Positions 25,053-36,884 of a stretch of DNA of 64,000 bases are shown one piece after another; the first letter of the stretch is position 1, and every line of letters begins with the position of its first letter. The position numbers and the translations under genes are program-made. The DNA comes from Ruminococcus sp. (lineage in GTDB: Bacteria > Bacillota > Clostridia > Oscillospirales > Ruminococcaceae), in NCBI GenBank assembly GCA_017534835.1, contig JAFXVT010000029.1:23564-87563 (forward strand), read 5' to 3'. Under the pieces are notes generated by a model, which had not been told where the DNA came from, made no database searches, and saw nothing but the letters and a program-made list of their open reading frames with translations.

Positions 25053-25202
25053 ATGCCTGAGGTAATTATTTTCATTTACCGGAAGTTTCAGTGCCGAATT
25101 TTTCCATTTCACACAGATTTCACTTTTATCACATATTACCTGTTGTTTTTTGCTGCGAAATATGTTATAATTTTGTCATATCATCGAGAAGGAGTTGTTT
25201 CA

Positions 25203-27038
25203 ATGAAAGATGATAACAAGAACTATGTCAAGCACATCATAAGCTTTGTCATCGTTTCTATTGTAGGTCTTCTTATCCTGAATGCATTTATAATGTCGGC
25301 TCTGAGCAAGACTCAGATAAAAGAAACGAATTACAGTTTCTTTCTGAATCAGGTCGAGGCTGGCAGAGTTACTCAGGTCAAGGTCGAGAGTGATGAGATA
25401 CGCTTTGAGGTAAAGGACGAGGACGGTCACAAACAGCTGTATTCGACCGGTAAAATGGACGACCCTGAGCTCGTTTCGCGGCTCTACGAAAAAGGCGACA
25501 TTATCTTCACCGAAAGCTTCAAGCAGAACAGCCTTCTGATAAGCTTCCTCGTGAACTGGATACTGCCTATCATCATATTTATGGTGCTCTGGAACCTGCT
25601 TTTCAAGGGTATGAGCAAGCACCTCGGCGGAAATGCACTCTCTTTCGGCAAGAGCAACGCTAAGATATATGTGAAGGCTCAGACAGGCAAGACCTTTGAG
25701 GACGTTGCCGGTCAGGACGAAGCAAAGGAAGCACTTGAAGAGATCGTCGATTTCCTCCATAACCCCAATAAATACGCTGACATCGGTGCCGACCTTCCGA
25801 AGGGTGCGCTTCTCGTCGGACCTCCCGGCACCGGTAAGACTCTGCTCGCTCAGGCTGTCGCAGGCGAGGCTAATGTCCCCTTCTTCTCTATCTCCGGCTC
25901 TGAATTCGTCGAGATGTTCGTCGGAATGGGTGCGGCTAAGGTGCGCGACTTGTTCAAGCAGGCGAATACAAAGGCTCCGTGTATCGTTTTCATAGATGAG
26001 ATAGATACTATCGGCAAGAAGCGTGACGGAAGCCTCGGCGGCAACGATGAGCGTGAGCAGACTCTCAACCAGCTTCTCACTGAAATGGACGGCTTCGACG
26101 GCAAAAAAGGCGTTGTCATACTTGCAGCTACCAACCGTCCCGAATCACTCGACCCTGCGCTCCTGCGTCCCGGACGCTTCGACAGACGCATACCTGCTGA
26201 GCTTCCCGACCTCGCCGGAAGAATAGCTATACTGAAGGTCCACGCTAAAAAGGTCAAGACAGAAGATAATATCGACTACAATGCGATCGCAAGAGCTACA
26301 GCAGGCGCTTCCGGCGCTGAGCTCGCAAATATCATCAACGAGGCCGCTCTGAGAGCTGTAAGAAGCGGCAGGAGCCTTGTTAATCAGTCTGACCTTGAGG
26401 AGAGCGTTGAAGTCGTTATTGCAGGCTATCAGCGTAAAAATGCAGTTATCTCACAGAAGGAGAAGGAGATAATCGCTTATCACGAGATAGGTCACGCTCT
26501 TGTTGCTGCAAAGCAGAAGGACGCCGCACCGGTACATAAGATAACGATAATCCCACGTACAAGCGGCGCTCTCGGTTATACTATGCAGGTAGATGAGGAC
26601 GAGAAGTTCCTGATGACCAAGGAAGAGGCTCTCGCACGTATCGCGACACTCACAGGCGGACGTTCCGCTGAGGAGCTCATCTTCAACAGCTGCACAAGCG
26701 GTGCTTCAAACGACATCGAACAGGCTACAAAGCTCGCGCGTGCTATGGTAACACGTTTTGGTATGAGTGACGGCTTCGATATGATAGCTCTCGAAACGAT
26801 AACGAATCAGTACCTCGGCGGAGATGCTTCACTCGCCTGCTCGCCCGAGACTGCTGCTAAGATCGACGAGGAAGTAAATGCCATCGTCAAGAACGCTCAC
26901 GAAAAAGCAGCACAGATACTCAGCGACAATATCGAAAAGCTCCACGAGCTCGCTAAGTTCCTGCTTGAAAAGGAAACTATCACAGGCGAGGAGTTTATGG
27001 AGATACTCAATAAAAAAGAAACACTTGCTATCGAATAG
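25203..27038 (+). CDS. ftsH: ATP-dependent zinc metalloprotease FtsH
   Basis: GAAGGAG upstream of the ATG at 25203. Two TM helices, AAA module [11 protein letters not shown] / IVFIDEID, and the SRH and HEIGHAL zinc motifs. Confidence 0.97.
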
Positions 27039-27043
27039 CATAG

Positions 27044-27080
27044 AACCTCTCCCCTGTTCGCACACGGGAGAGGTTTTTTC
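27044..27080 (+). terminator. Rho-independent terminator
   Basis: AACCTCTCCC / GGGAGAGGTT stem followed by TTTTT. Confidence 0.85.
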
Positions 27081-27152
27081 TTCGGAAATACTTGACTATT
27101 TCCGAAAAATGTGAGATAATAGATAAGATGTTTATCAGAAAGGACAATCGAA

Positions 27153-27671
27153 ATGAGAGAACTTACAGAAACAATGACAACATGGCTCGCAGACCACGGG
27201 ATACCCGAATGGCTCATACCTTTATTCGTATCGGTATTCCCGATAGTTGAGTTGCGCGGAGGCATAATCGCCGCACGACTGCTCGACCTCGAACTCTGGA
27301 AGGCTATATGGGTTTGTATGATCGGCAATATCATTCCCATACCGTTTATCCTGCTTTTCATAGATAAGATATTTGCCTTCATCAAGAAGCACAATATCCC
27401 TCTGCTCTGCAAATTCGTCACCTTCCTCGAAAACAAGGCTCTCAATAAGAGCGAAAAAATGGAGCGCGGAGAATTCGTCTTCCTGCTTCTCTTCGTTGGC
27501 ATACCGCTTCCCGGTACCGGTGCGTGGACAGGCTCTCTCATCGCTGTACTGAGGCGTATACCGCTGAAAAAGAGCGTTCCTGCGATTTTCCTCGGACTTT
27601 GCCTCGCTTCCGCGATAATGTGTGTACTGTGCTACGGCTTCCCGGGATTATTTGCAAAGATGTTCGGATAA
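27153..27671 (+). CDS. Small membrane protein, COG2426 / putative small multidrug export family-like
   Basis: 172 aa with 4-5 TM helices. PIVELRGGI and GTGAWTGSL blocks. Family call is from memory of the motif pattern. Confidence 0.55.
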   Translation: MRELTETMTTWLADHGIPEWLIPLFVSVFPIVELRGGIIAARLLDLELWKAIWVCMIGNIIPIPFILLFIDKIFAFIKKHNIPLLCKFVTFLENKALNKSEKMERGEFVFLLLFVGIPLPGTGAWTGSLIAVLRRIPLKKSVPAIFLGLCLASAIMCVLCYGFPGLFAKMFG

Positions 27672-27676
27672 TTGAA

Positions 27677-27730
27677 AAGGAGTACCCTGAATGCTGTCTA
27701 TACCGTAGCTTTAGGGTACTCCTTATTTTT
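27677..27730. terminator. Bidirectional terminator between convergent genes
   Basis: AAGGAGTACCCT / AGGGTACTCCTT 12-bp stem with T-runs on both strands. Confidence 0.75.
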
Positions 27731-29525
27731 ATATGAATGCCTGCTTTTTCAGTATGGATGTTATGACTCTTCCGAGCACGGTGAAATAGTTCATATCAGA
27801 TACGGACCACTTCTTGAAGCGTCCGACATAGCAGAATGAGACCATTCCCTTTATTACGCTTTCATCCGTCATAAGGTACTGCACAGCTCCGCCGATGTTT
27901 TCTTCCGTGAGCTGGCGGAAAGCAGCGTCCTCGCGTCCTTCGAGCTCGTTTACGTTGTCGATGGCAAAAACGCCGTCTCCGGAAAAATGCGACGTATAGC
28001 TGCCGCTGAGCAGATATGCTGCATTCCGCGATGAGGCATTGCTGCAGCTGAGGATAAGGTCCATATTATTGCCGGCAAACACGCATATATCGTCAATATC
28101 AAAGGCAGAGCGTATCTGCTCGAGCAGGACTGAAATATCCGGCACACGTCCGAAAACAAGGCTCTCGGACAGTCGTGCTGCAAAATCGAGCTTCTCGGAC
28201 ATATCCTTCTGTGTGCTGAGATAGACTATCTTCTTGTCCATATCCTTTTCGACGGGTCCGTGCTTGGCGATGTCATAGATGACATACCGGTTCTGACCCT
28301 TCTGCTGGGCGATATACAGGGCTTTATCCGCCTGCATAAAGAGCTCGTCAAAATCCGTGCTGTCGGTCGGATAAGTGGAGATACCCATTGAACAGGTAAG
28401 TCGGAAATTCTCAAAACGGTCACTGAACGCAAGCTCGATGTTGGTGCGTATAGCACGCAGTATTCCGCGCAGATCCTCTTCATCGCGCGTATTCTCAAGG
28501 ACTATCAGGAATCCTCCGCCGCTTATTCTGCCGGCGATGCCGCGTATGCCTATCTGGTCCTTGATTATCGCTGCGGCATTGTAAATTACCTCATCGCCGA
28601 AAAGGTGTCCATAGCTTGAATTGATGTCGGTGAAGTTGTCGATGTCGAGAATAACGATGTTTACGTTGCGATTGGGCTTCCCGGCGAGTATGTTCTTCGC
28701 AAAGGCGGTGACGGTGCGCTTGTTGAGGAGTCCGGAGAGCGAGTCCTTATTTGCTTCAAGTGCAAGGTTGGTGTCCTTTGTTTTCTGCCTTGAATTGATA
28801 ACGGAAATAATACCAGTGACCTTGCGAGAATCGGGAGCATCGTACCGCGTGATACCGCGGAAAAGGCACATTTCACGGTTTTTGCCTTCGGTCAGTATAG
28901 ATGATTCAAATTCGTAATCGAAGCGGTAAACTCCATTTTTGATGTCGCGGCAGAGCGTGTTGAAGGTCTCGATGTATCTTGAGAGTACCCAGCCGTTCTC
29001 TATCGCTGTTGACTGCCATTTTTCAAGCTCTTCGTCGGCAAGTATCACATCGCGGCAGCAATCGAACATATAAATGCGTATATGCCGCGTCTCAAAACTG
29101 TACTCGAATGCGAGGTCTGACGTAAGACTGAGAATGTATCTGTATTCATTAAGACTTCGCTCGCGGCTGCGTGAAATGCCTTCGAGAGAGAAGACGTCGC
29201 TAAGGTCGATCGAATACAGCGGCTCCTCCCCTTCTTCGTCGATAAGCTTGACGGAAGCAAGTACCCAGCGCAGAAGCCCGTTCACTCCCTTCATTCGGAT
29301 AACTGTGCGGTGCACCGTTCCGGCTTCCGCCTGAGCGATACACTCTTCGATTCGAGGGATATCCTCATCGTCGATCGTCCTCTTTATGGAATAAGTGACA
29401 TTATTGCCGAAATAGCTGAAAAAGGCTTCGCTTCCGCTCTGTGTGTGGAAGCTGCGGTCGACAACGACCCTGCCGATAGAATACAAAGTGCGGTCATTTG
29501 CAGATGTTCTGCCGTTCACGTACAT
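27729..29525 (-). CDS. GGDEF-domain protein with N-terminal PAS-like and C-terminal GAF-like regions and a degenerate signature motif
   Basis: LDIDNFTDINSSYGHLFGDEV block, then RISGGGFLIVL where GGDEF is expected. The ATG at 29525 is preferred to the upstream extension. Confidence 0.85.
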   Translation of the reverse strand: MYVNGRTSANDRTLYSIGRVVVDRSFHTQSGSEAFFSYFGNNVTYSIKRTIDDEDIPRIEECIAQAEAGTVHRTVIRMKGVNGLLRWVLASVKLIDEEGEEPLYSIDLSDVFSLEGISRSRERSLNEYRYILSLTSDLAFEYSFETRHIRIYMFDCCRDVILADEELEKWQSTAIENGWVLSRYIETFNTLCRDIKNGVYRFDYEFESSILTEGKNREMCLFRGITRYDAPDSRKVTGIISVINSRQKTKDTNLALEANKDSLSGLLNKRTVTAFAKNILAGKPNRNVNIVILDIDNFTDINSSYGHLFGDEVIYNAAAIIKDQIGIRGIAGRISGGGFLIVLENTRDEEDLRGILRAIRTNIELAFSDRFENFRLTCSMGISTYPTDSTDFDELFMQADKALYIAQQKGQNRYVIYDIAKHGPVEKDMDKKIVYLSTQKDMSEKLDFAARLSESLVFGRVPDISVLLEQIRSAFDIDDICVFAGNNMDLILSCSNASSRNAAYLLSGSYTSHFSGDGVFAIDNVNELEGREDAAFRQLTEENIGGAVQYLMTDESVIKGMVSFCYVGRFKKWSVSDMNYFTVLGRVITSILKKQAFI

Positions 29526-29712
29526 CACCTCACTATAAATAATAACATATATAGATACAAATAGCAAGAGTCAAAAAAAATAAACTGACGCTGCGATTCA
29601 TTCGTTATAAAAAAATTGTAATCGGCTATGTTAGTATCATATATTAACAAAAATACAGCTTATTAATATAGACTGTTTAGACCTTTCATCTCAAAATGAT
29701 AGGCAAGAGCAA

Positions 29713-29785: not shown

Positions 29786-29814
29786 GTGACATAATCTGAT
29801 TACTGTTGTATAAT
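29786..29814 (+). promoter_or_regulatory. Sigma-A-like promoter of pfl
   Basis: GTGACA, 17-nt spacer, TATAAT. Confidence 0.5.
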
Positions 29815-29889
29815 AGAATTATAGTATCAATATTGCGGATGCCGCCTGACATAATGGCTTCTGCAATAAAGCGAAGGAGTCCTGATCTT

Positions 29890-32013
29890 ATGTTAGAGTA
29901 TATCAAAGAGTTTCCCAGGGAATGGGAAGGTTTTACACCCGGAAGATGGTGCAATACATCGGTCAATGTCAGGAATTTCATCAAAAACAACTATACCCCC
30001 TATGACGGCGATGAAAGCTTCCTCGCCGGTCCTACAGAGGCTACAAAGCAGCTGTGGGCGCAGGTAAGCGAGCTGTCTCGTCAGGAGCGTGAAGCCGGCG
30101 GTGTCCTCGATATGGATACGAAGATAATCTCAACTATTACCTCTCACGGTGCCGGCTACCTCAACAAAGACCTTGAACAGATCGTCGGTCTTCAGACGGA
30201 CAAGCCCTTCAAGCGCGCGCTTCAGCCCTTCGGCGGTATCCGTATGGCTCAGCAGGCTTGCAAGGAGTACGGCTATGAGGTCGATCCTGAGGTCGTTGAG
30301 ATCTTCACTAAGTACCGCAAGACTCACAATCAGGGCGTATTTGACGCTTATACACCCGAAATGCGCCTTGCACGACATTCTGCTATCCTCACCGGTCTTC
30401 CCGATGCTTACGGCAGAGGACGCATAATCGGCGACTACAGACGTATCGCTCTCTACGGCGTTGATATCCTTATTATGGACAAAAAGCACCAGATAGATAC
30501 CTCGCTCGTAAGAATGACCTCAAAGAATATCCGCCTCCGCGAAGAGCTTGCTGAGCAGGTCCGTGCTCTTGAGGACCTCAAGAAGCTCGGTGAGATATAC
30601 GGATTCGATATCTCAAAGCCTGCCGCAAACGCCAAGGAAGCAGTCCAGTGGCTCTATTTCGGCTATCTTGCCGCTGTCAAGGAGCAGAATGGTGCTGCAA
30701 TGTCACTCGGACGTACTTCTACCTTCCTCGACATCTATATCCAGCGCGACCTCGACCGCGGTATCATAACTGAGGAACAGGCTCAGGAGCTCATAGACCA
30801 CTTTATTATGAAGCTGCGTATCGTAAAGTTTGCACGTACTCCCGAATACAACGAGCTCTTCTCGGGCGACCCGACATGGATAACAGAATCCATCGGCGGT
30901 ATCACTGTTGACGGTCACCACCTCGTAACTAGGAACAGCTTCCGCTATCTGCATACCCTTGAAAATCTCGGTACTGCTCCCGAACCCAATATGACTGTGC
31001 TCTGGTCCACGAGACTCCCGAGAAACTTTAAGGTATACTGCGCAAAGATGTCCATTCAGACATCATCTATCCAGTATGAGAACGACGATATGATGCGTGA
31101 GATACACGGCGATGATTACGCTATCGCCTGCTGTGTTTCTTCTATGGTTGTCGGCAAGGAGATGCAGTTCTTCGGTGCGAGAGCAAACCTCGCCAAGTGC
31201 CTGCTTTACGCTATAAACGGCGGTGTGGACGAGCGCCTCGGCTTGCAGGTAGGTCCGAAATTCAGACCTGTTGATTCCGAATACCTCGACTTTGATGATG
31301 TTTGGGAAAAATATATGGATATGATGGAGTGGCTCGCAGGACTCTACGTGAACACCCTCAATGTTATCCACTATATGCACGATAAATACTGCTATGAGAG
31401 ACTCCAGATGGCTCTTCACGACCGCGATGTAAAGCGCTATTTTGCTACAGGTATCGCCGGTCTGTCAGTCGTTGCAGATTCGCTCTCAGCTATCAAATAC
31501 GCCAAGGTAAAGCCTATCCGCAAGGACATCGAGATAAAGGACAAGGCAGGCAATGTCGTTGACATCGCCAAGAATGTCGTTGTCGACTACGAAATTGAGG
31601 GAGATTTCCCGAAATACGGAAATAATGACGACCGGGTCGATGAGCTTGCAGTCAGCGTTGTAAGACACTTTATGGACTGCATCCGCAAGCATCACACTTA
31701 CCGTGACGGTGTTCCGACAATGTCTATCCTTACTATCACTTCAAATGTAGTGTATGGCAAGAAGACAGGCAACACTCCTGATGGACGCAAACAGGGCGTT
31801 CCGCTCGCTCCAGGTGCAAATCCGATGCACGGAAGAGATACTCACGGTGCTGTAGCTTCGCTCTCGTCCGTAGCAAAGCTCCCCTTCCGTCACGCTCAGG
31901 ACGGTATCTCAAATACGTTCTCTATCGTTCCGGACGCACTCGGTAAGGATATGCAGGTATTCGCCGGCGACCTCGACCTTGACAAGCTCGCTCAGGAGGC
32001 TGAAAATGAGTGA
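29890..32013 (+). CDS. pflB: Pyruvate formate-lyase catalytic core (formate C-acetyltransferase) lacking the glycyl-radical domain
   Basis: GAAGGAG upstream of the ATG at 29890. PflB-like from [10 protein letters not shown]...[18 protein letters not shown] to ...[10 protein letters not shown]. Active-site Cys-Cys at 31129-31134 (ACCVS). Ends with a 20-aa acidic tail and TGATAA. Confidence 0.9.
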
Positions 32014-32215
32014 TAATATCAGACCCGACGGTAAATCTCCCGAGGAGCTCGCTGACCTGATAGATACTCTTATGTCGCAGGGAAGCGGTCACGTAAACAT
32101 CACTTCCGGCAGCGATAACAACGGTATCAAGGTCGATACAGTAAAGAGTACAGACATCTGCGGCGTTAAGGGTGCGTGCTGTCAGCCGACCGAAAACGCC
32201 ATCGACGAAGACTAA
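32006..32215 (+). CDS. 69-aa acidic Cys-Cys protein encoded between the two pfl segments
   Basis: AGGAGG 6 nt upstream of the ATG. The ATG overlaps the core stop (ATGAGTGA). Its own stop is embedded in the next SD site (TAAGGAGG). No recognised family. Confidence 0.55.
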
Positions 32216-32226
32216 GGAGGATAATT

Positions 32227-32466
32227 ATGGCTAACGATAAACAGGTAGATAATCTCATTGAGCTGCTCGACGGCTATGTAGAAAAAGGCGGTCATCACCT
32301 CAATGTAAATGTATTCACAAGAGAGACTCTTCTCGATGCTCAGGCTCACCCGGAGAAGTATCCTCAGCTCACAGTCAGGGTCTCCGGCTACGCAGTAAAC
32401 TTCGTAAAGCTCACAAAAGAGCAGCAGGACGACGTTATCTCGCGTACCTTCCATAACACATTATAA
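32227..32466 (+). CDS. Free-standing glycyl-radical domain (C-terminal PFL segment, GrcA/YfiD-like)
   Basis: AAGGAGG 6 nt upstream of the [12 protein letters not shown] ... [33 protein letters not shown], with the radical Gly codon at 32386-32388. Confidence 0.85.
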
Positions 32467-32472
32467 AAATCA

Positions 32473-32517
32473 GCAGTCAGCAACGGAAGCACACCTTGCT
32501 GACTGCATTTTTTCTTT
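32473..32517. terminator. Bidirectional terminator
   Basis: GCAGTCAGCAA / TTGCTGACTGC 11-bp stem followed by TTTTTTCTTTTT. There is an A-run on the other side. Confidence 0.85.
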
Positions 32518-32952
32518 TTAGAGGTATTGCCTCATATCAGCCGAAAGCTTCTCTTCTGAGCTGATAAGGCGTTTTGCGATGTCCTTCGAGCGCTCGTCTG
32601 CTGCCTTGTACTGATTCATATAACGGCTCAGGGATTTAATCCCCATATTGCAGCCGTCAATCATCAGCTCGGCGATCTTGCTGTCTGTGCCGTCGATGAG
32701 CATTTCCCAGTTCGTTTTGACCCACGACATACCCTGAACTACCGGATTCGGGTCCTTTCCGTCGTCGTGATAGTCGTCAAGGACTTTCTGAAGGTCAGTC
32801 TGAAGGCGTTCGTTTTCGCTCTTGCTGCTTCGGAGGATAGACTGTAATCCCCTGCCCTTGACGTGATCCATTACCTCATCAATAGCGGTTATACCCATTT
32901 TTACGCCTGAATCGCACTCACGGAGCAGACGTATCGTATCTCTTTCAACCAT
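32518..32952 (-). CDS. Hypothetical helical protein (144 aa)
   Basis: Clean ORF with an AAGGAG SD site. Predicted all-helical. No confident family. Confidence 0.6.
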   Translation of the reverse strand: MVERDTIRLLRECDSGVKMGITAIDEVMDHVKGRGLQSILRSSKSENERLQTDLQKVLDDYHDDGKDPNPVVQGMSWVKTNWEMLIDGTDSKIAELMIDGCNMGIKSLSRYMNQYKAADERSKDIAKRLISSEEKLSADMRQYL

Positions 32953-33017: not shown

Positions 33018-34007
33018 TTAAAGCATCTTTGCTCTCAGTTCTTCACCGGAAAGCGGCGAGAGATAAGCAGGAGCGATGTCGAATGCTGTCTTACAGCCTG
33101 TTGCTCCCTCAGCCTTGAGACGTGCCATTGCTCTTGCAAAGCAGATGAGCACGCTTGCTGTGAACTCGGGATTTGAACCAAGCTTGAGTGAATATTCGAT
33201 CATCTGATGTGTCTGCTCGCCGTCGCCTGTGAGACCGCTTCTCATTACGAAGCCGCCGTGAGGCATCGTGTTGTGCTTAGCATCGAACTCTTCCTCGGTG
33301 ATGAAATTTACTGTTGTATCGTATTCATCGAAGTAGTTCTTCATTGTCTTTATATCGTTCTCGATCTTTGCAAGATCTGCGCCTTCCTTCGGAACTACCC
33401 AGCACTCACGGAGATGCTTCTGACGGGTAGTAAGCTCGGGCTGGCTTCCGCTTCTTACAGCTTCCATTGCAGACTCTATCGGAACTGTGTACTGGATACC
33501 ACGCTTTACGCCCTCAACACGGCGGATAGCATCGGAGTGTCCCTGACTTACACCCTTGCCCCAGAATGTGTAGCTCTTGCCGCTGGGAAGGATAGACTCA
33601 GCATAGAGTCTGTTGAGTGAGAAGAGACCGGGATCCCAGCCGAGTGAGATGAACGCGAGGTGTCCGCTCTCCTTTGCAGCCTTGTCTACGTTTGCAAAAT
33701 GCTCGGGGATACGAGCGTGAGTATCAAAGCTGTCGATAACATTGAAATACTTTGCGAGCTCAGGAGTCTGCTTGGGGAGGTCAGTTGCACTTCCGCCGCA
33801 GATGATGAGAACGTCAATGTCGTTCTGCTTAGACTGGATGTCATTGATGCTGAATACAGGTGCGCCTGCTGTGAGAGGCTTGAGAGACGAAGGATCGCGG
33901 CGTGTGAAAATGCCTGCGAGCTCCATATCGTCGTTCTGTCTGATAGCAAGTTCTACACCCTTGCCGAGGTTGCCGTAGCCGGCAATACCAATTCTGATCT
34001 TGCTCAT
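33018..34007 (-). CDS. ddh: meso-Diaminopimelate D-dehydrogenase
   Basis: MSKIRIGIAGYGNLGKGVE...GIFTRRD N-terminus typical of Ddh. AAGGAG upstream of the ATG at 34007. Confidence 0.88.
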   Translation of the reverse strand: MSKIRIGIAGYGNLGKGVELAIRQNDDMELAGIFTRRDPSSLKPLTAGAPVFSINDIQSKQNDIDVLIICGGSATDLPKQTPELAKYFNVIDSFDTHARIPEHFANVDKAAKESGHLAFISLGWDPGLFSLNRLYAESILPSGKSYTFWGKGVSQGHSDAIRRVEGVKRGIQYTVPIESAMEAVRSGSQPELTTRQKHLRECWVVPKEGADLAKIENDIKTMKNYFDEYDTTVNFITEEEFDAKHNTMPHGGFVMRSGLTGDGEQTHQMIEYSLKLGSNPEFTASVLICFARAMARLKAEGATGCKTAFDIAPAYLSPLSGEELRAKML

Positions 34008-34095
34008 TGGTTTGCTCCTTTGAAAATTTATTTGTACCGCCCTCGCCATTGAAGACGGAACATGGCAATGTTAGTTCAAGGCAGACGTGTGTCTG

Positions 34096-34845
34096 TCATA
34101 TAAGCATCTGCATATCATAAAGACCGGCAGGCTGACTCTTCAGGAAGAGAGCTGCCTTTACAGACCCCTCTGCGAATACCATTTTTGAAGCAGCTGAATG
34201 CGAAAGAGTTATGACCTCGTCGTTTCCGGCAAAGATCACATCGTGCTCGCCTACGATAGTGCCGCCGCGGATAGCGTGCATACCTATCTCGCTCTTCTCA
34301 CGCTTCTGACGGCGTGAGTGGCGGTCGTAGACATACTGCTTGGAGTTTCCGAAGGTCTCGTTGATCGCATTTGCGAGCATTATAGCTGTTCCGCTCGGTG
34401 CATCTATCTTCTGATTATGGTGCTTCTCAACGATCTCAATATCGAAGCGGTCTCCGAGGACTTCAGCAGCCTTCTTCGCGAGGTTCACAAGAAGGTTGAT
34501 GCCTAAGGACATATTGAATGTGAAGAAGACCGGTATCTGCTCGGCAGCTGACTTTATCTGAGCTATCTGCTCGTCGGTGTAGCCTGTCGATGCCACTACG
34601 AGCGGTGTGCCTGTTGAAAGGCAGTATTCGAGAAGTCCGCTGAGAGAAGCGGGATTTGAGAAGTCGATTATTACATCGGGCTTTACGGGAAGCTCCGACG
34701 GTGCGGCAACTATCGGGAAATCTGCATATTCCTTCGTGTAGATGTCGATACCGGCAACGACCTTGCAGTCATCGCGCTCTTCGATGCAGCTATAGACATT
34801 CTTGCCCATTTTTCCGTTAGCTCCGCATATTGCTATATTTGTCAT
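34096..34845 (-). CDS. dapB: 4-hydroxy-tetrahydrodipicolinate reductase
   Basis: GANGKMG nucleotide-binding loop and EKHHNQKIDAPSGTA catalytic block. Confidence 0.95.
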   Translation of the reverse strand: MTNIAICGANGKMGKNVYSCIEERDDCKVVAGIDIYTKEYADFPIVAAPSELPVKPDVIIDFSNPASLSGLLEYCLSTGTPLVVASTGYTDEQIAQIKSAAEQIPVFFTFNMSLGINLLVNLAKKAAEVLGDRFDIEIVEKHHNQKIDAPSGTAIMLANAINETFGNSKQYVYDRHSRRQKREKSEIGMHAIRGGTIVGEHDVIFAGNDEVITLSHSAASKMVFAEGSVKAALFLKSQPAGLYDMQMLI

Positions 34846-34883
34846 ATTATTCACTTCCTTGCGGTTATGACCGCAGCAGATTT

Positions 34884-35774
34884 TTACTTGATAAGTCCGT
34901 GTCTTTCGAGTGTTGCACGGAGCTTTGCTCTGTGCTCATCTGTCATCTCGCACAGCGGCAGGCGGCACGGACCTGCATTCCAGCCGAGCATATTCATAGC
35001 TTCCTTTACCGGAATGGGATTGACCTCGATAAAGAGGTCGTTGATGATGTCGAGATACTTCAGCTGAAGCTTCATCGCCTCTTCAAAGTTGTTATCAAGG
35101 CAGAGCTGCACCATATCGTGCATCTCCTTGGGGATAACGTGCGAAGCTACGGAAATGACGCCCTTTCCGCCGAGTGACATAACAGGTACGACCATATCAT
35201 CGTTTCCGCTGTATATGTCTATGTTGTCGCCGCACTCAGCCGCGATCTTTGCTACATAGCTGATATTGCCGCTTGCTTCCTTGATAGCAGCAATATTCTT
35301 ATGCTTTGAAAGCTCCTTGACTGTTGCAACATCAAAGCCGCAGCCTGTTCTGCTGGGAACGTTGTAAAGAATGATCGGGATATTTACTGCATCTGCGATA
35401 GCGGTGAAATGAGCTACAAGTCCCTTCTGTGAAGCCTTATTGTAATAGGGCGTTACGTGGAGCAGAGCGTCTGCACCGGCTGCCTCAGCCTCCTTTGAGA
35501 GTTCAACTGCATAGCGAGTGTCATTGCTTCCGGCGCCTGCGATCACAGGAACTCTGCCGGCTGTGTGCTTAACAGCGAACTTGATGCAGTCGCGGTGCTC
35601 ATCGTCTGTCATTGTAGCAGATTCGCCTGTGGTACCGCAAATAACTATTGCATCGGTGCCGTTTGCTATCTGGTCATCTATAACACGTCCGAGCTCATCG
35701 TAGTTGATCGAGCCGTCAGCGTTCATCGGTGTTATTATTGCGACAGCAGCACCGGTAAAAATCGTGTTCTTCAT
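34884..35774 (-). CDS. dapA: 4-hydroxy-tetrahydrodipicolinate synthase
   Basis: GTTGESATMT, YNVPSRTG and the active-site Lys context AIKEASG. Confidence 0.95.
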   Translation of the reverse strand: MKNTIFTGAAVAIITPMNADGSINYDELGRVIDDQIANGTDAIVICGTTGESATMTDDEHRDCIKFAVKHTAGRVPVIAGAGSNDTRYAVELSKEAEAAGADALLHVTPYYNKASQKGLVAHFTAIADAVNIPIILYNVPSRTGCGFDVATVKELSKHKNIAAIKEASGNISYVAKIAAECGDNIDIYSGNDDMVVPVMSLGGKGVISVASHVIPKEMHDMVQLCLDNNFEEAMKLQLKYLDIINDLFIEVNPIPVKEAMNMLGWNAGPCRLPLCEMTDEHRAKLRATLERHGLIK

Positions 35775-35804
35775 AATAGATCTGTCCTTTCTTAATTAGG
35801 AAAA

Positions 35805-36884
35805 TCAGTCAAAATAGCCCTTTGCTGCGAGGAGCTCTGCAAGCAGAACACCGCCGCCTGCTGCACCTCTGAGTGTGTTGTGTGAAAGGCATACGAACTT
35901 GTAATCGTACTGGGTATCCTCGCGGAGACGGCCTGTCGAAACTGCCATACCGCCCTCGATATTTCTGTCGAGCTTAGCCTGCGGACGGTCGTTTTCCTCG
36001 AAGTAGTGGATGAACTGCTTGGGAGCACTGGGGAGCTCGAGCTCCTGCGGAACGCCTTTGAAATCAGCCCAGAGCTTGAGTATCTCCTCCTTGGAGGGCT
36101 TGTTCTCAAAGCTTACGAATACAGCAGCTGTGTGTCCGTCGGAAACGGGAACTCTGAGGCACTGTGTCGTAATGTTGGGAGCTGTAGCCTTGACGATCTC
36201 ATTGCCCTTGATCTCGCCCCAGACCTTGAGCGGCTCCTGCTCGGACTTCTCCTCTTCGCCGCCGATGTAGGGAATGAGGTTGTCGATCATTTCCGGCCAG
36301 GTCTCGAAATTCTTTCCGGCGCCGGAAATTGCCTGATATGTGCAGGCAAGAACGTTCTTGAGCCCGAACTTTCTGAGCGGGTGAAGAGCAGGAACATAGC
36401 TCTGGATAGAGCAGTTGGACTTGACTGCGATGAAGCCTCTCTTTGTGCCGAGACGCTCACGCTGTGCCTTGATTATCTCAATGTGTTCGGGATTTATCTC
36501 CGGAACGACCATAGGTACGTCAGGAGTGAATCTGTGAGCGGAGTTGTTCGATACAATCGGGCACTCAGCCTTTGCGTACTTCTCTTCAAGAGCCTTTATC
36601 TCGTCCTTTTTCATATCAACTGCACAAAAGCAGAAATCTACCATTGACGCGATCTTCTCTATATCGGAGGTTGCGTCCAGAAGGACCATATCCTTCATAG
36701 CTGCTGGCATGGGAACTGCCATCTTCCAGCGGCTTCCTGCTGCCTGCTCGTATGTCTGACCGGCACTTCTCGGAGATGCTGCGAGCACCTTTACATTGAA
36801 CCACGGGTGATTCTCGAGCAGCGTTGCAAAGCGCTGTCCTACCATTCCCGTTGCACCGATGATACCTACGTTGTACTGTTTCAT
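35805..36884 (-). CDS. asd: Aspartate-semialdehyde dehydrogenase
   Basis: GATGMVGQR, NCSIQ (active-site Cys) and SHNTLRGAAG. Confidence 0.95.
   Translation of the reverse strand: MKQYNVGIIGATGMVGQRFATLLENHPWFNVKVLAASPRSAGQTYEQAAGSRWKMAVPMPAAMKDMVLLDATSDIEKIASMVDFCFCAVDMKKDEIKALEEKYAKAECPIVSNNSAHRFTPDVPMVVPEINPEHIEIIKAQRERLGTKRGFIAVKSNCSIQSYVPALHPLRKFGLKNVLACTYQAISGAGKNFETWPEMIDNLIPYIGGEEEKSEQEPLKVWGEIKGNEIVKATAPNITTQCLRVPVSDGHTAAVFVSFENKPSKEEILKLWADFKGVPQELELPSAPKQFIHYFEENDRPQAKLDRNIEGGMAVSTGRLREDTQYDYKFVCLSHNTLRGAAGGGVLLAELLAAKGYFD

Follow-up and report, generated by a model that had tools for sequence, protein, structure and literature searches.

A probable split pyruvate formate-lyase in Ruminococcus, with a free-standing glycyl-radical subunit and a small conserved protein encoded in between

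The pfl locus

Pyruvate formate-lyase (PFL) is the founding glycyl radical enzyme and carries out a central fermentation step in gut and rumen anaerobes. In a 64,000-nucleotide stretch of a Ruminococcus sp. genome (assembly GCA_017534835.1, contig JAFXVT010000029.1, positions 23,564 to 87,563; hereafter the window), this enzyme is probably made in pieces. Positions 29890-32466 of the window hold three co-directional open reading frames (ORFs) on the + strand, each with its own ribosome-binding site. They encode a PFL catalytic core of 707 amino acids (aa) that ends before the radical loop, an acidic protein of 69 aa, here called the middle protein, and a free-standing glycyl-radical subunit of 79 aa that belongs to the GrcA3 type.

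The features of the locus are collected in Table 1. The core gene stops at TGA (32011-32013) with TAA directly after it, and the middle gene has AGGAGG 7 nt upstream of its ATG. The terminator, which a consensus scan had missed, folds as an RNA hairpin at -21 kcal/mol, with z = -5.6 against 200 shuffles; this predicted terminator and the promoter-like site together frame a three-gene operon of core, middle gene and GrcA3. Two GAT (Asp) codons, at 31948 and 32236, lie 288 nt apart, and A-n-n-CAGGTA follows both. A first-pass annotation, made from the letters of the window, had recorded the coordinates, the Cys-Cys pair, the 79-aa ORF with its AAGGAGG, the 288-nt Asp spacing and the flanking CAGGTA, and all of these statements are confirmed.

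Table 1. Features of the split pfl locus (window coordinates)
Feature	Position	Strand	Basis or remark
Promoter-like site (GTGACA, 17 nt, TATAAT), upstream of core gene	29786-29814	+	Consensus scan, 11/12 positions; putative, consensus match only
Core Shine-Dalgarno AAGGAG	29874-29879	+	10 nt 5' of core ATG
PFL catalytic core gene, 707 aa	29890-32013	+	TIGR01255, Pfam PFL-like and first half of Gly_radical
Active-site Cys414-Cys415 codons (E. coli C418/C419)	31129-31134	+	Translation, alignment
Core acidic tail, in place of radical-domain start	31948-32010	+	Conserved motif
Middle gene, 69 aa, acidic product	32006-32215	+	ATG overlaps core stop (ATGA)
GrcA3 Shine-Dalgarno AAGGAGG	32214-32220	+	Then 6 nt, then ATG
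GrcA3-type free-standing glycyl-radical subunit, 79 aa	32227-32466	+	NF038360, Pfam Gly_radical 50-106
GrcA3 Gly54 codon inside RVSGY	32386-32388	+	Translation
Intrinsic terminator closing operon	32473-32519	+	13 bp in two stacked helices, then U-run

The catalytic core

The core matches TIGR01255, the PFL equivalog model, with 1104.7 bits against a cut-off of 994.2, and aligns to residues 7-681 of the solved E. coli PflB. Its Cys-Cys pair lies in AIACCVSS, which is aligned to the AIACCVS / AAAV-CVS region of PFLs in the PDB, and the pair is invariant in a 10-genome alignment. The match to TIGR01255 covers positions 1-665 of 744, and the RVSGY glycyl-radical loop is not on the core polypeptide; it sits on the 79-aa protein. 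The core alone therefore cannot hold a radical. The Pfam Gly_radical domain is shared out between two proteins, with positions 2-50 in the core and 50-106 in the 79-aa protein.

The acidic tail of the core carries the motif GKD-x-x-[VI]-F-x-G-D-[LI]-D-[LI]-D, which is found in all Ruminococcus loci, in Beduini, in Lachnospiraceae and in one further locus (L086); a loose version is present in 97 of the 119 cores of other lineages among the matches listed in the tail survey described below. Elsewhere in the core, residues ~547-565 (window ~31525-31585) contain an insertion of 14-19 residues that PDB 38la and several other Ruminococcus cores do not have. The Ruminococcus cores without the insertion read …VIRDEDGIVTDY…; the genus is polymorphic for this indel.

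The closest solved chains to the core are PDB 38la (687 aa) and 38lb (739 aa), both entered as 'Formate acetyltransferase', at 1130 and 1112 bits. They come from other organisms and are about 80% identical to the window core as judged by eye from the alignment. Chain 38la is aligned to its residue 686 of 687, so that its end (...SLGKE) is the split point, either as a natural protein or as a truncated construct, and for 38lb the alignment runs on into a tail that bears Cys (GKSGNVMFGECDMCEM...). The 79-aa radical subunit has no match to either the 38la or the 38lb chain. No paper was found for the two entries, which are probably very recent, as they are missing from a Foldseek library running to April 2026.

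The glycyl-radical subunit

The 79-aa protein scores 167.7 bits against NCBIfam NF038360 (GrcA3), for which the cut-off is 158, and its residues 3-79 match positions 2-78 of the 78 in that model. The name GrcA3 ('autonomous glycyl radical cofactor') is carried by many homologues in NCBI and UniRef. Against TIGR04365 (GrcA/YfiD) the score is 97.7 bits, below the equivalog cut-off of 170, and the N-terminal ~60 residues of GrcA/YfiD are absent from the protein.

The subunit covers positions 663-744 of TIGR01255 and aligns to residues 682-757 of E. coli PflB and to residues 67-126 of GrcA. It carries the connecting helix, the barrel strand beta10 (GGHHLNVNV), the RVSGY glycine finger and the last helix, and ends in RTFHNTL; Gly54, within TVRVSGYAV, is the equivalent of PflB G734. 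By these alignments core and GrcA3 are an exact split of PFL just before the helix that leads into beta10, with essentially no part of PFL missing.

The middle protein

The 69-aa middle protein, of roughly 7 kDa and with cysteines at residues 52, 58 and 59, has no Pfam or NCBIfam match at E <= 0.1. Its homologues fall into 302 clusters, and a profile search of 1.84 billion representative proteins gave about 100 clusters at 50% identity; all are small proteins. Nearly all of the ~100 are 50-105 residues long (one has 129 residues and two are 34-residue fragments), and no homologue within a full-length PFL was found among them. The family pattern is ...ELxxLIDxLMxxGxGHxN[VI]...V-x-T-x-x-S-x-D-C...G-A-C-x-Q-P-T-E, followed by an acidic tail.

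The N-terminal half consists of a helix and a GSGHVNI strand and is radical-domain-like. When 114 members of the family were compared with 112 GrcA3 and radical-domain sequences by hhalign, residues 6-38 of the middle protein were paired with residues 1-33 of GrcA3 (the helix and the GGHHLNVNV strand) with Prob 95%, P = 2.4e-8 and a score of 40.8, a similarity of 33 columns only. Controls scored far lower (<= 19.5 for 30 column shuffles and 7.2 for a reversed alignment). The half retains the residues L, L/I, D, G, G, H and N of the radical-domain helix and beta10, and the protein has no RVSGY-like glycine loop. On this profile comparison the N-terminal half is a paralogue of the helix and beta10 part of the radical domain.

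Modelled by itself with AlphaFold, the middle protein reaches low confidence only, with a predicted local distance difference test score (pLDDT) of 56 from 30 sequences and 64 from 90 sequences. Both models have a helix (12-24) and a beta-hairpin (about 28-34 and 41-47); after these come a short helix (48-52) and a Cys region without structure, a picture that would fit a protein folding on a partner. Foldseek found nothing in the PDB that matched the models at E <= 0.001. An EF-hand identity was considered and rejected; the PDB profile matches that suggested it are at chance level (E ~0.01) and the matched segment is a generic D-x-x-G-S-G loop.

Conservation in Ruminococcus

The profile of the middle ORF matched 127 species-level genomes, of which the best 80 were fetched; almost all of these are Ruminococcus. 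The order core, middle gene, GrcA3 is present in all 80, the adjacent PFL is without a radical domain in every locus examined, and frameshifts in the core occur in four metagenome-assembled genomes (MAGs) only. Cultured carriers include R. flavefaciens FD-1, 007c, ATCC 19208, MC2020, ND2009, MA2007, YAD2003 and YL228, and also Ruminococcus sp. YRD2003; R. flavefaciens is reported to produce formate.

Across Ruminococcus, identity to the window is 85-94% for the core, 59-79% for the middle protein and 89-99% for GrcA3. The median ratios of nonsynonymous to synonymous substitution (dN/dS; 68 loci) are ~0.04, ~0.14 and ~0.03 respectively, values that are rough because dS is saturated (~1.4-1.6), though clearly far below 1. 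All three genes are under purifying selection. The first-pass annotation had proposed a PFL that is constitutively a radical-less core plus a free radical subunit, and had suggested that relatives be searched for recurrence with intact ORFs; both the proposal and the intactness of the ORFs are borne out by the 80 genomes.

The same annotation had described the interval between the two Asp codons as a 288-bp in-frame cassette whose deletion would restore one contiguous gene, and this part has to be given up. The stop codon of the core and the start codon of the middle gene are coupled, lying -8 to +23 nt apart, and GrcA3 follows the middle gene after anything from 2 to 245 nt. Taken modulo 3, the spacing of the two corresponding codons falls 22/22/28 over 72 loci. 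As the frame relation is random and the spacing variable, the in-frame spacing is a coincidence of the window genome. Nor is the interval a mere cassette, since it encodes a conserved and selected 69-aa gene that belongs to the PFL system. The idea of a mobile cassette was rejected on two grounds, the lack of conservation of spacing and frame and the nature of the interval as an old gene under selection; the material examined, in which no search dedicated to repeats was run, showed no repeat or mobile feature.

In several R. flavefaciens genomes the whole split operon is present twice, on different contigs (L018/L061 in UBA1210, L020/L048 in UBA1190, L023/L054 in Tb.RUG.491, and L004/L005). 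Two operon copies from one metagenome sample differ downstream, where one is followed by adhE, an APH-family kinase gene and a formate/nitrite transporter gene and the other by a gene for a dockerin protein; at L004, likewise, the operon has adhE and then an APH-family gene beside it. A typical Ruminococcus-type split operon was also found on a contig labelled as an 'uncultured Alistipes sp.' MAG (L038, CAYNYB010000007.1), probably through a binning error.

Other lineages and the fused cysteine tail

Outside Ruminococcus, an operon of core, middle gene, GrcA3 and pflA, sometimes followed by focA, is present in P0140, in P0175, in a Beduini genome and in a Lachnospiraceae MAG. The products measure 683-698 aa (core), 64-68 aa (small protein), 79 aa (GrcA3) and 248-253 aa (PflA), and the middle proteins of these loci are 30-45% identical. 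In the loci examined the middle gene always lies between the core and GrcA3.

The ends of PFL cores were surveyed by a search with the C-terminal region of PDB chain 38lb, which gave 119 listed matches with a locatable tail. Of these, 118 are PFL cores that end at the same place and one is full length, with RVSGY. The tail is short, acidic and without Cys, as in the window, in 64 of the 119; it bears the C-terminal motif of the middle protein (for example ALGKEDRIFMGDLDIELDCRTGACATPTLFEGLDRE) in 23, other Cys clusters in 27 and one Cys in four. A hidden Markov model (HMM) of the middle protein matches the motif-bearing core tails with E values of 7e-5 to 1e-3. Where the core tail contains C..GAC..PT or is otherwise Cys-rich, there is no middle gene and the operon consists of core, GrcA (80-81 aa) and PflA. 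A 95%-identical relative of 38lb, found in metagenome contigs only, lies in such an operon (core, GrcA of 80 aa, PflA, without the middle gene), and a 78%-identical tail is annotated Collinsella intestinalis. The Cys motif thus stands either on the core or on a detached small protein, which makes it a hallmark of split PFLs.

Other genes accompany some of these operons. In two Lachnospiraceae-type split-PFL lineages (L094/L095 and L100) the core gene is preceded by a small, divergently oriented DUF1858 gene, and just 3' of pflA there is a gene for a 56-aa protein that matches 4Fe-4S ferredoxin families and could be the electron donor for the activase. The two Beduini contigs differ in that one of them (L092 versus L093) has a gene for a 339-aa APH-family kinase inserted between grcA3 and pflA.

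Comparison with known systems

E. coli PflB with GrcA/YfiD (PDB 1H16, 6OWR) is similar to the system proposed here in having a catalytic core with Cys-Cys, a small RVSGY protein that docks in trans, and a dependence on a radical S-adenosylmethionine (SAM) activase. E. coli PflB, however, is full length with its own radical domain, and GrcA is a backup after damage, whereas the Ruminococcus core never has the domain, so that the small subunit would be obligatory. In PFL coordinates GrcA3 starts 14-20 residues earlier than GrcA and so includes the helix that corresponds to PflB 682-695. The disordered 60-residue N-terminus of GrcA is needed for activation in E. coli (PMC8683613); GrcA3 has no such region. 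The Ruminococcus system also has a third, middle protein, for which there is none in E. coli PflB/GrcA.

A two-piece PFL has been engineered from the E. coli proteins. Once activated, tPFL(1-695) with YfiD is fully active, at the wild-type level (Andorfer et al. 2021, PMC8683613). YfiD is bound and activated less well when cleaved PFL has lost residues 696-733, and this stretch, which is a second copy of beta10 and the following helix, was termed a 'recognition element' by the authors (PMC8683613). The engineered pair resembles the Ruminococcus system as a two-piece PFL with the break just before beta10, in which a second copy of beta10 aids the binding of the spare part. It is artificial, binds weakly and is poorly activated, whereas the natural system breaks at ~681, has a conserved acidic core tail, and has its second beta10-like element on a separate 69-aa protein with a Cys motif. 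The name of NF038360 implies a spare part and is silent on the truncated partner PFL and on the gene in between.

Other multisubunit glycyl radical enzymes are known. Benzylsuccinate synthase, 4-hydroxyphenylacetate decarboxylase and alkylsuccinate synthase consist of a large catalytic subunit and small accessory subunits, some of which are Cys-rich or metal-binding. In these enzymes it is the large subunit that keeps the radical domain, and their small subunits have unrelated sequences.

The literature searched, which included a 2026 review on glycyl radical enzymes, yielded the spare-part system of E. coli and no account of a natural split PFL. The novelty suggested by the first-pass annotation is nevertheless overstated, being softened by the prior existence of the curated NCBI family GrcA3 and of PDB entries 38la and 38lb.

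Proposed mechanism and alternatives

The locus is best read as a functional, obligately split PFL made from one operon that encodes the core, the small protein and GrcA3, with a probability of roughly 0.8. The core would provide the ten-stranded barrel up to beta9 together with the Cys-Cys pair, and GrcA3 would provide in trans everything after PflB residue 681. A PFL activase, presumably encoded elsewhere in the genome (and adjacent in other lineages), would place the radical on Gly54 of GrcA3, either free or bound to the core. GrcA3 would then complete the barrel with beta10 and set its glycine finger opposite Cys414/415, so that Gly54 could feed that pair in the manner of ordinary PFL. A cut caused by oxygen would fall in the 9-kDa subunit only, which could be replaced cheaply without remaking the 80-kDa core.

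In the same scheme the middle protein would be a trans-acting 'duplicate beta-strand' adaptor that serves the docking, activation or exchange of GrcA3, as a natural equivalent of the PFL 696-733 element. This role is proposed because the N-terminal half of the protein is homologous to the segment from the helix through beta10, which overlaps the start of that element, and it is offered tentatively. The Cys motif may be a metal or redox site. A wider proposal, possible but doubtful, is that split PFLs form a distinct and widespread class with an obligatory Cys-motif element (DC..GAC..PT). Carried on the core tail or on the beta10-mimicking small protein, this element would gate how the radical subunit docks, is activated or is exchanged, possibly by way of a metal or redox site.

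Several points weigh against these proposals. The case for the split enzyme is built from sequence comparison, and the saturation of dS blurs one part of it. No PFL activase gene was found in the window by tblastn, in agreement with the first-pass annotation, or within 6 kb of the pfl genes in the Ruminococcus loci, and GrcA3 might also serve another enzyme. For the middle protein, the adaptor role draws on homology and gene-fusion logic, and the shortness of the similarity to the radical domain, the low confidence of the models and the negative Foldseek search count against it as well.

The main alternative to an adaptor is that the middle protein is a placeholder, a dummy radical domain that sits in the core slot until GrcA3 displaces it, or that fills the never-activated protomer of a half-of-sites dimer. 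Its N-terminal half does retain conserved radical-domain residues without an RVSGY-like loop, the translational coupling of the middle gene to the core suggests matched stoichiometry of the two products, and PMC12338860 describes PflB with hypothetical half-site reactivity. The lineages in which the Cys motif is fused to the core tail, however, do without the beta10-like N-terminal half altogether, so that the common denominator is the Cys motif and not a plug; the placeholder role is accordingly rated as unlikely.

A second alternative leaves the split enzyme itself in doubt. GrcA3 could be a mere spare part for a full-length PFL encoded elsewhere, beside a core that is a non-functional or differently functioning paralogue, and the family name 'autonomous glycyl radical cofactor', given by analogy with E. 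coli GrcA, points that way. Such a role is improbable in view of the core, which is among the most conserved genes of the locus (85-94% identity, dN/dS 0.04), has kept its Cys-Cys pair and passes the equivalog cut-off. Core and GrcA3 are always adjacent and, in other lineages, share an operon with the only nearby activase, and 118 of the 119 listed homologues of the core C-terminal region end at the same place. GrcA3, moreover, begins exactly where the core ends, whereas E. coli GrcA is a copy of the last 60 residues.

A single polypeptide restored from the three ORFs, whether by translational bypass, by read-through or by protein splicing at an intein-like element, with use of the 288-nt relation, is suggested by the shared frame of core and GrcA3 in the window and by the similar GAT A-n-n CAGGTA flanks. 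This is next to impossible given the random frame over the 72 loci, a spacing that varies by more than 200 nt, the separate Shine-Dalgarno sequence and ATG of each gene, and an interval that encodes, in another frame, a protein under purifying selection; the middle protein, being without any Pfam or NCBIfam match, also matches no intein family. An error of sequencing or assembly, or a pseudogene of recent decay, for which the unusual gene structure alone would speak, is already refuted by the same arrangement in cultured isolates and independent metagenome assemblies and by the strong purifying selection on all three ORFs.

Significance

The split-PFL layout is common to many gut and rumen anaerobes and is partly recorded in databases, while its third component is uncharacterised. 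The 69-aa protein or an equivalent Cys-bearing tail accompanies split PFLs in at least two phyla (Collinsella being taken as Actinomycetota). Two questions under study are how the activase gains access to the buried glycine of the barrel and by what means the GrcA spare part recognizes a damaged enzyme; a 9-kDa radical domain that is always separate is a ready model for both, in which docking, activation and exchange can be separated by experiment. If gating by the Cys element is true, it would amount to a regulated cycle of repair built into an oxygen-sensitive enzyme, for which E. coli has no counterpart.

There are practical sides to this as well. Annotation pipelines label the three products 'formate C-acetyltransferase', 'hypothetical protein' and 'spare-part cofactor', and such labels hide that the three may be jointly needed for activity. 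A joint need would matter for the heterologous expression of PFL and for inferring formate production from metagenomes.

Neighbouring genes

The genes on either side of the operon are of ordinary kinds. Upstream, the window encodes FtsH and a 612-aa GGDEF protein (25053-29567). In related contigs a gene for an AI-2E-family transporter lies between the GGDEF gene and pfl, and it is absent from the window. Downstream, a 144-aa ORF (32518-32952, - strand) converges on the operon terminator; it has no Pfam match and is syntenic in the related Ruminococcus contigs L001-L003. It is followed on the - strand by a lysine/diaminopimelate (DAP) cluster at 33018-36884 that comprises meso-DAP dehydrogenase, DapB, DapA and Asd.

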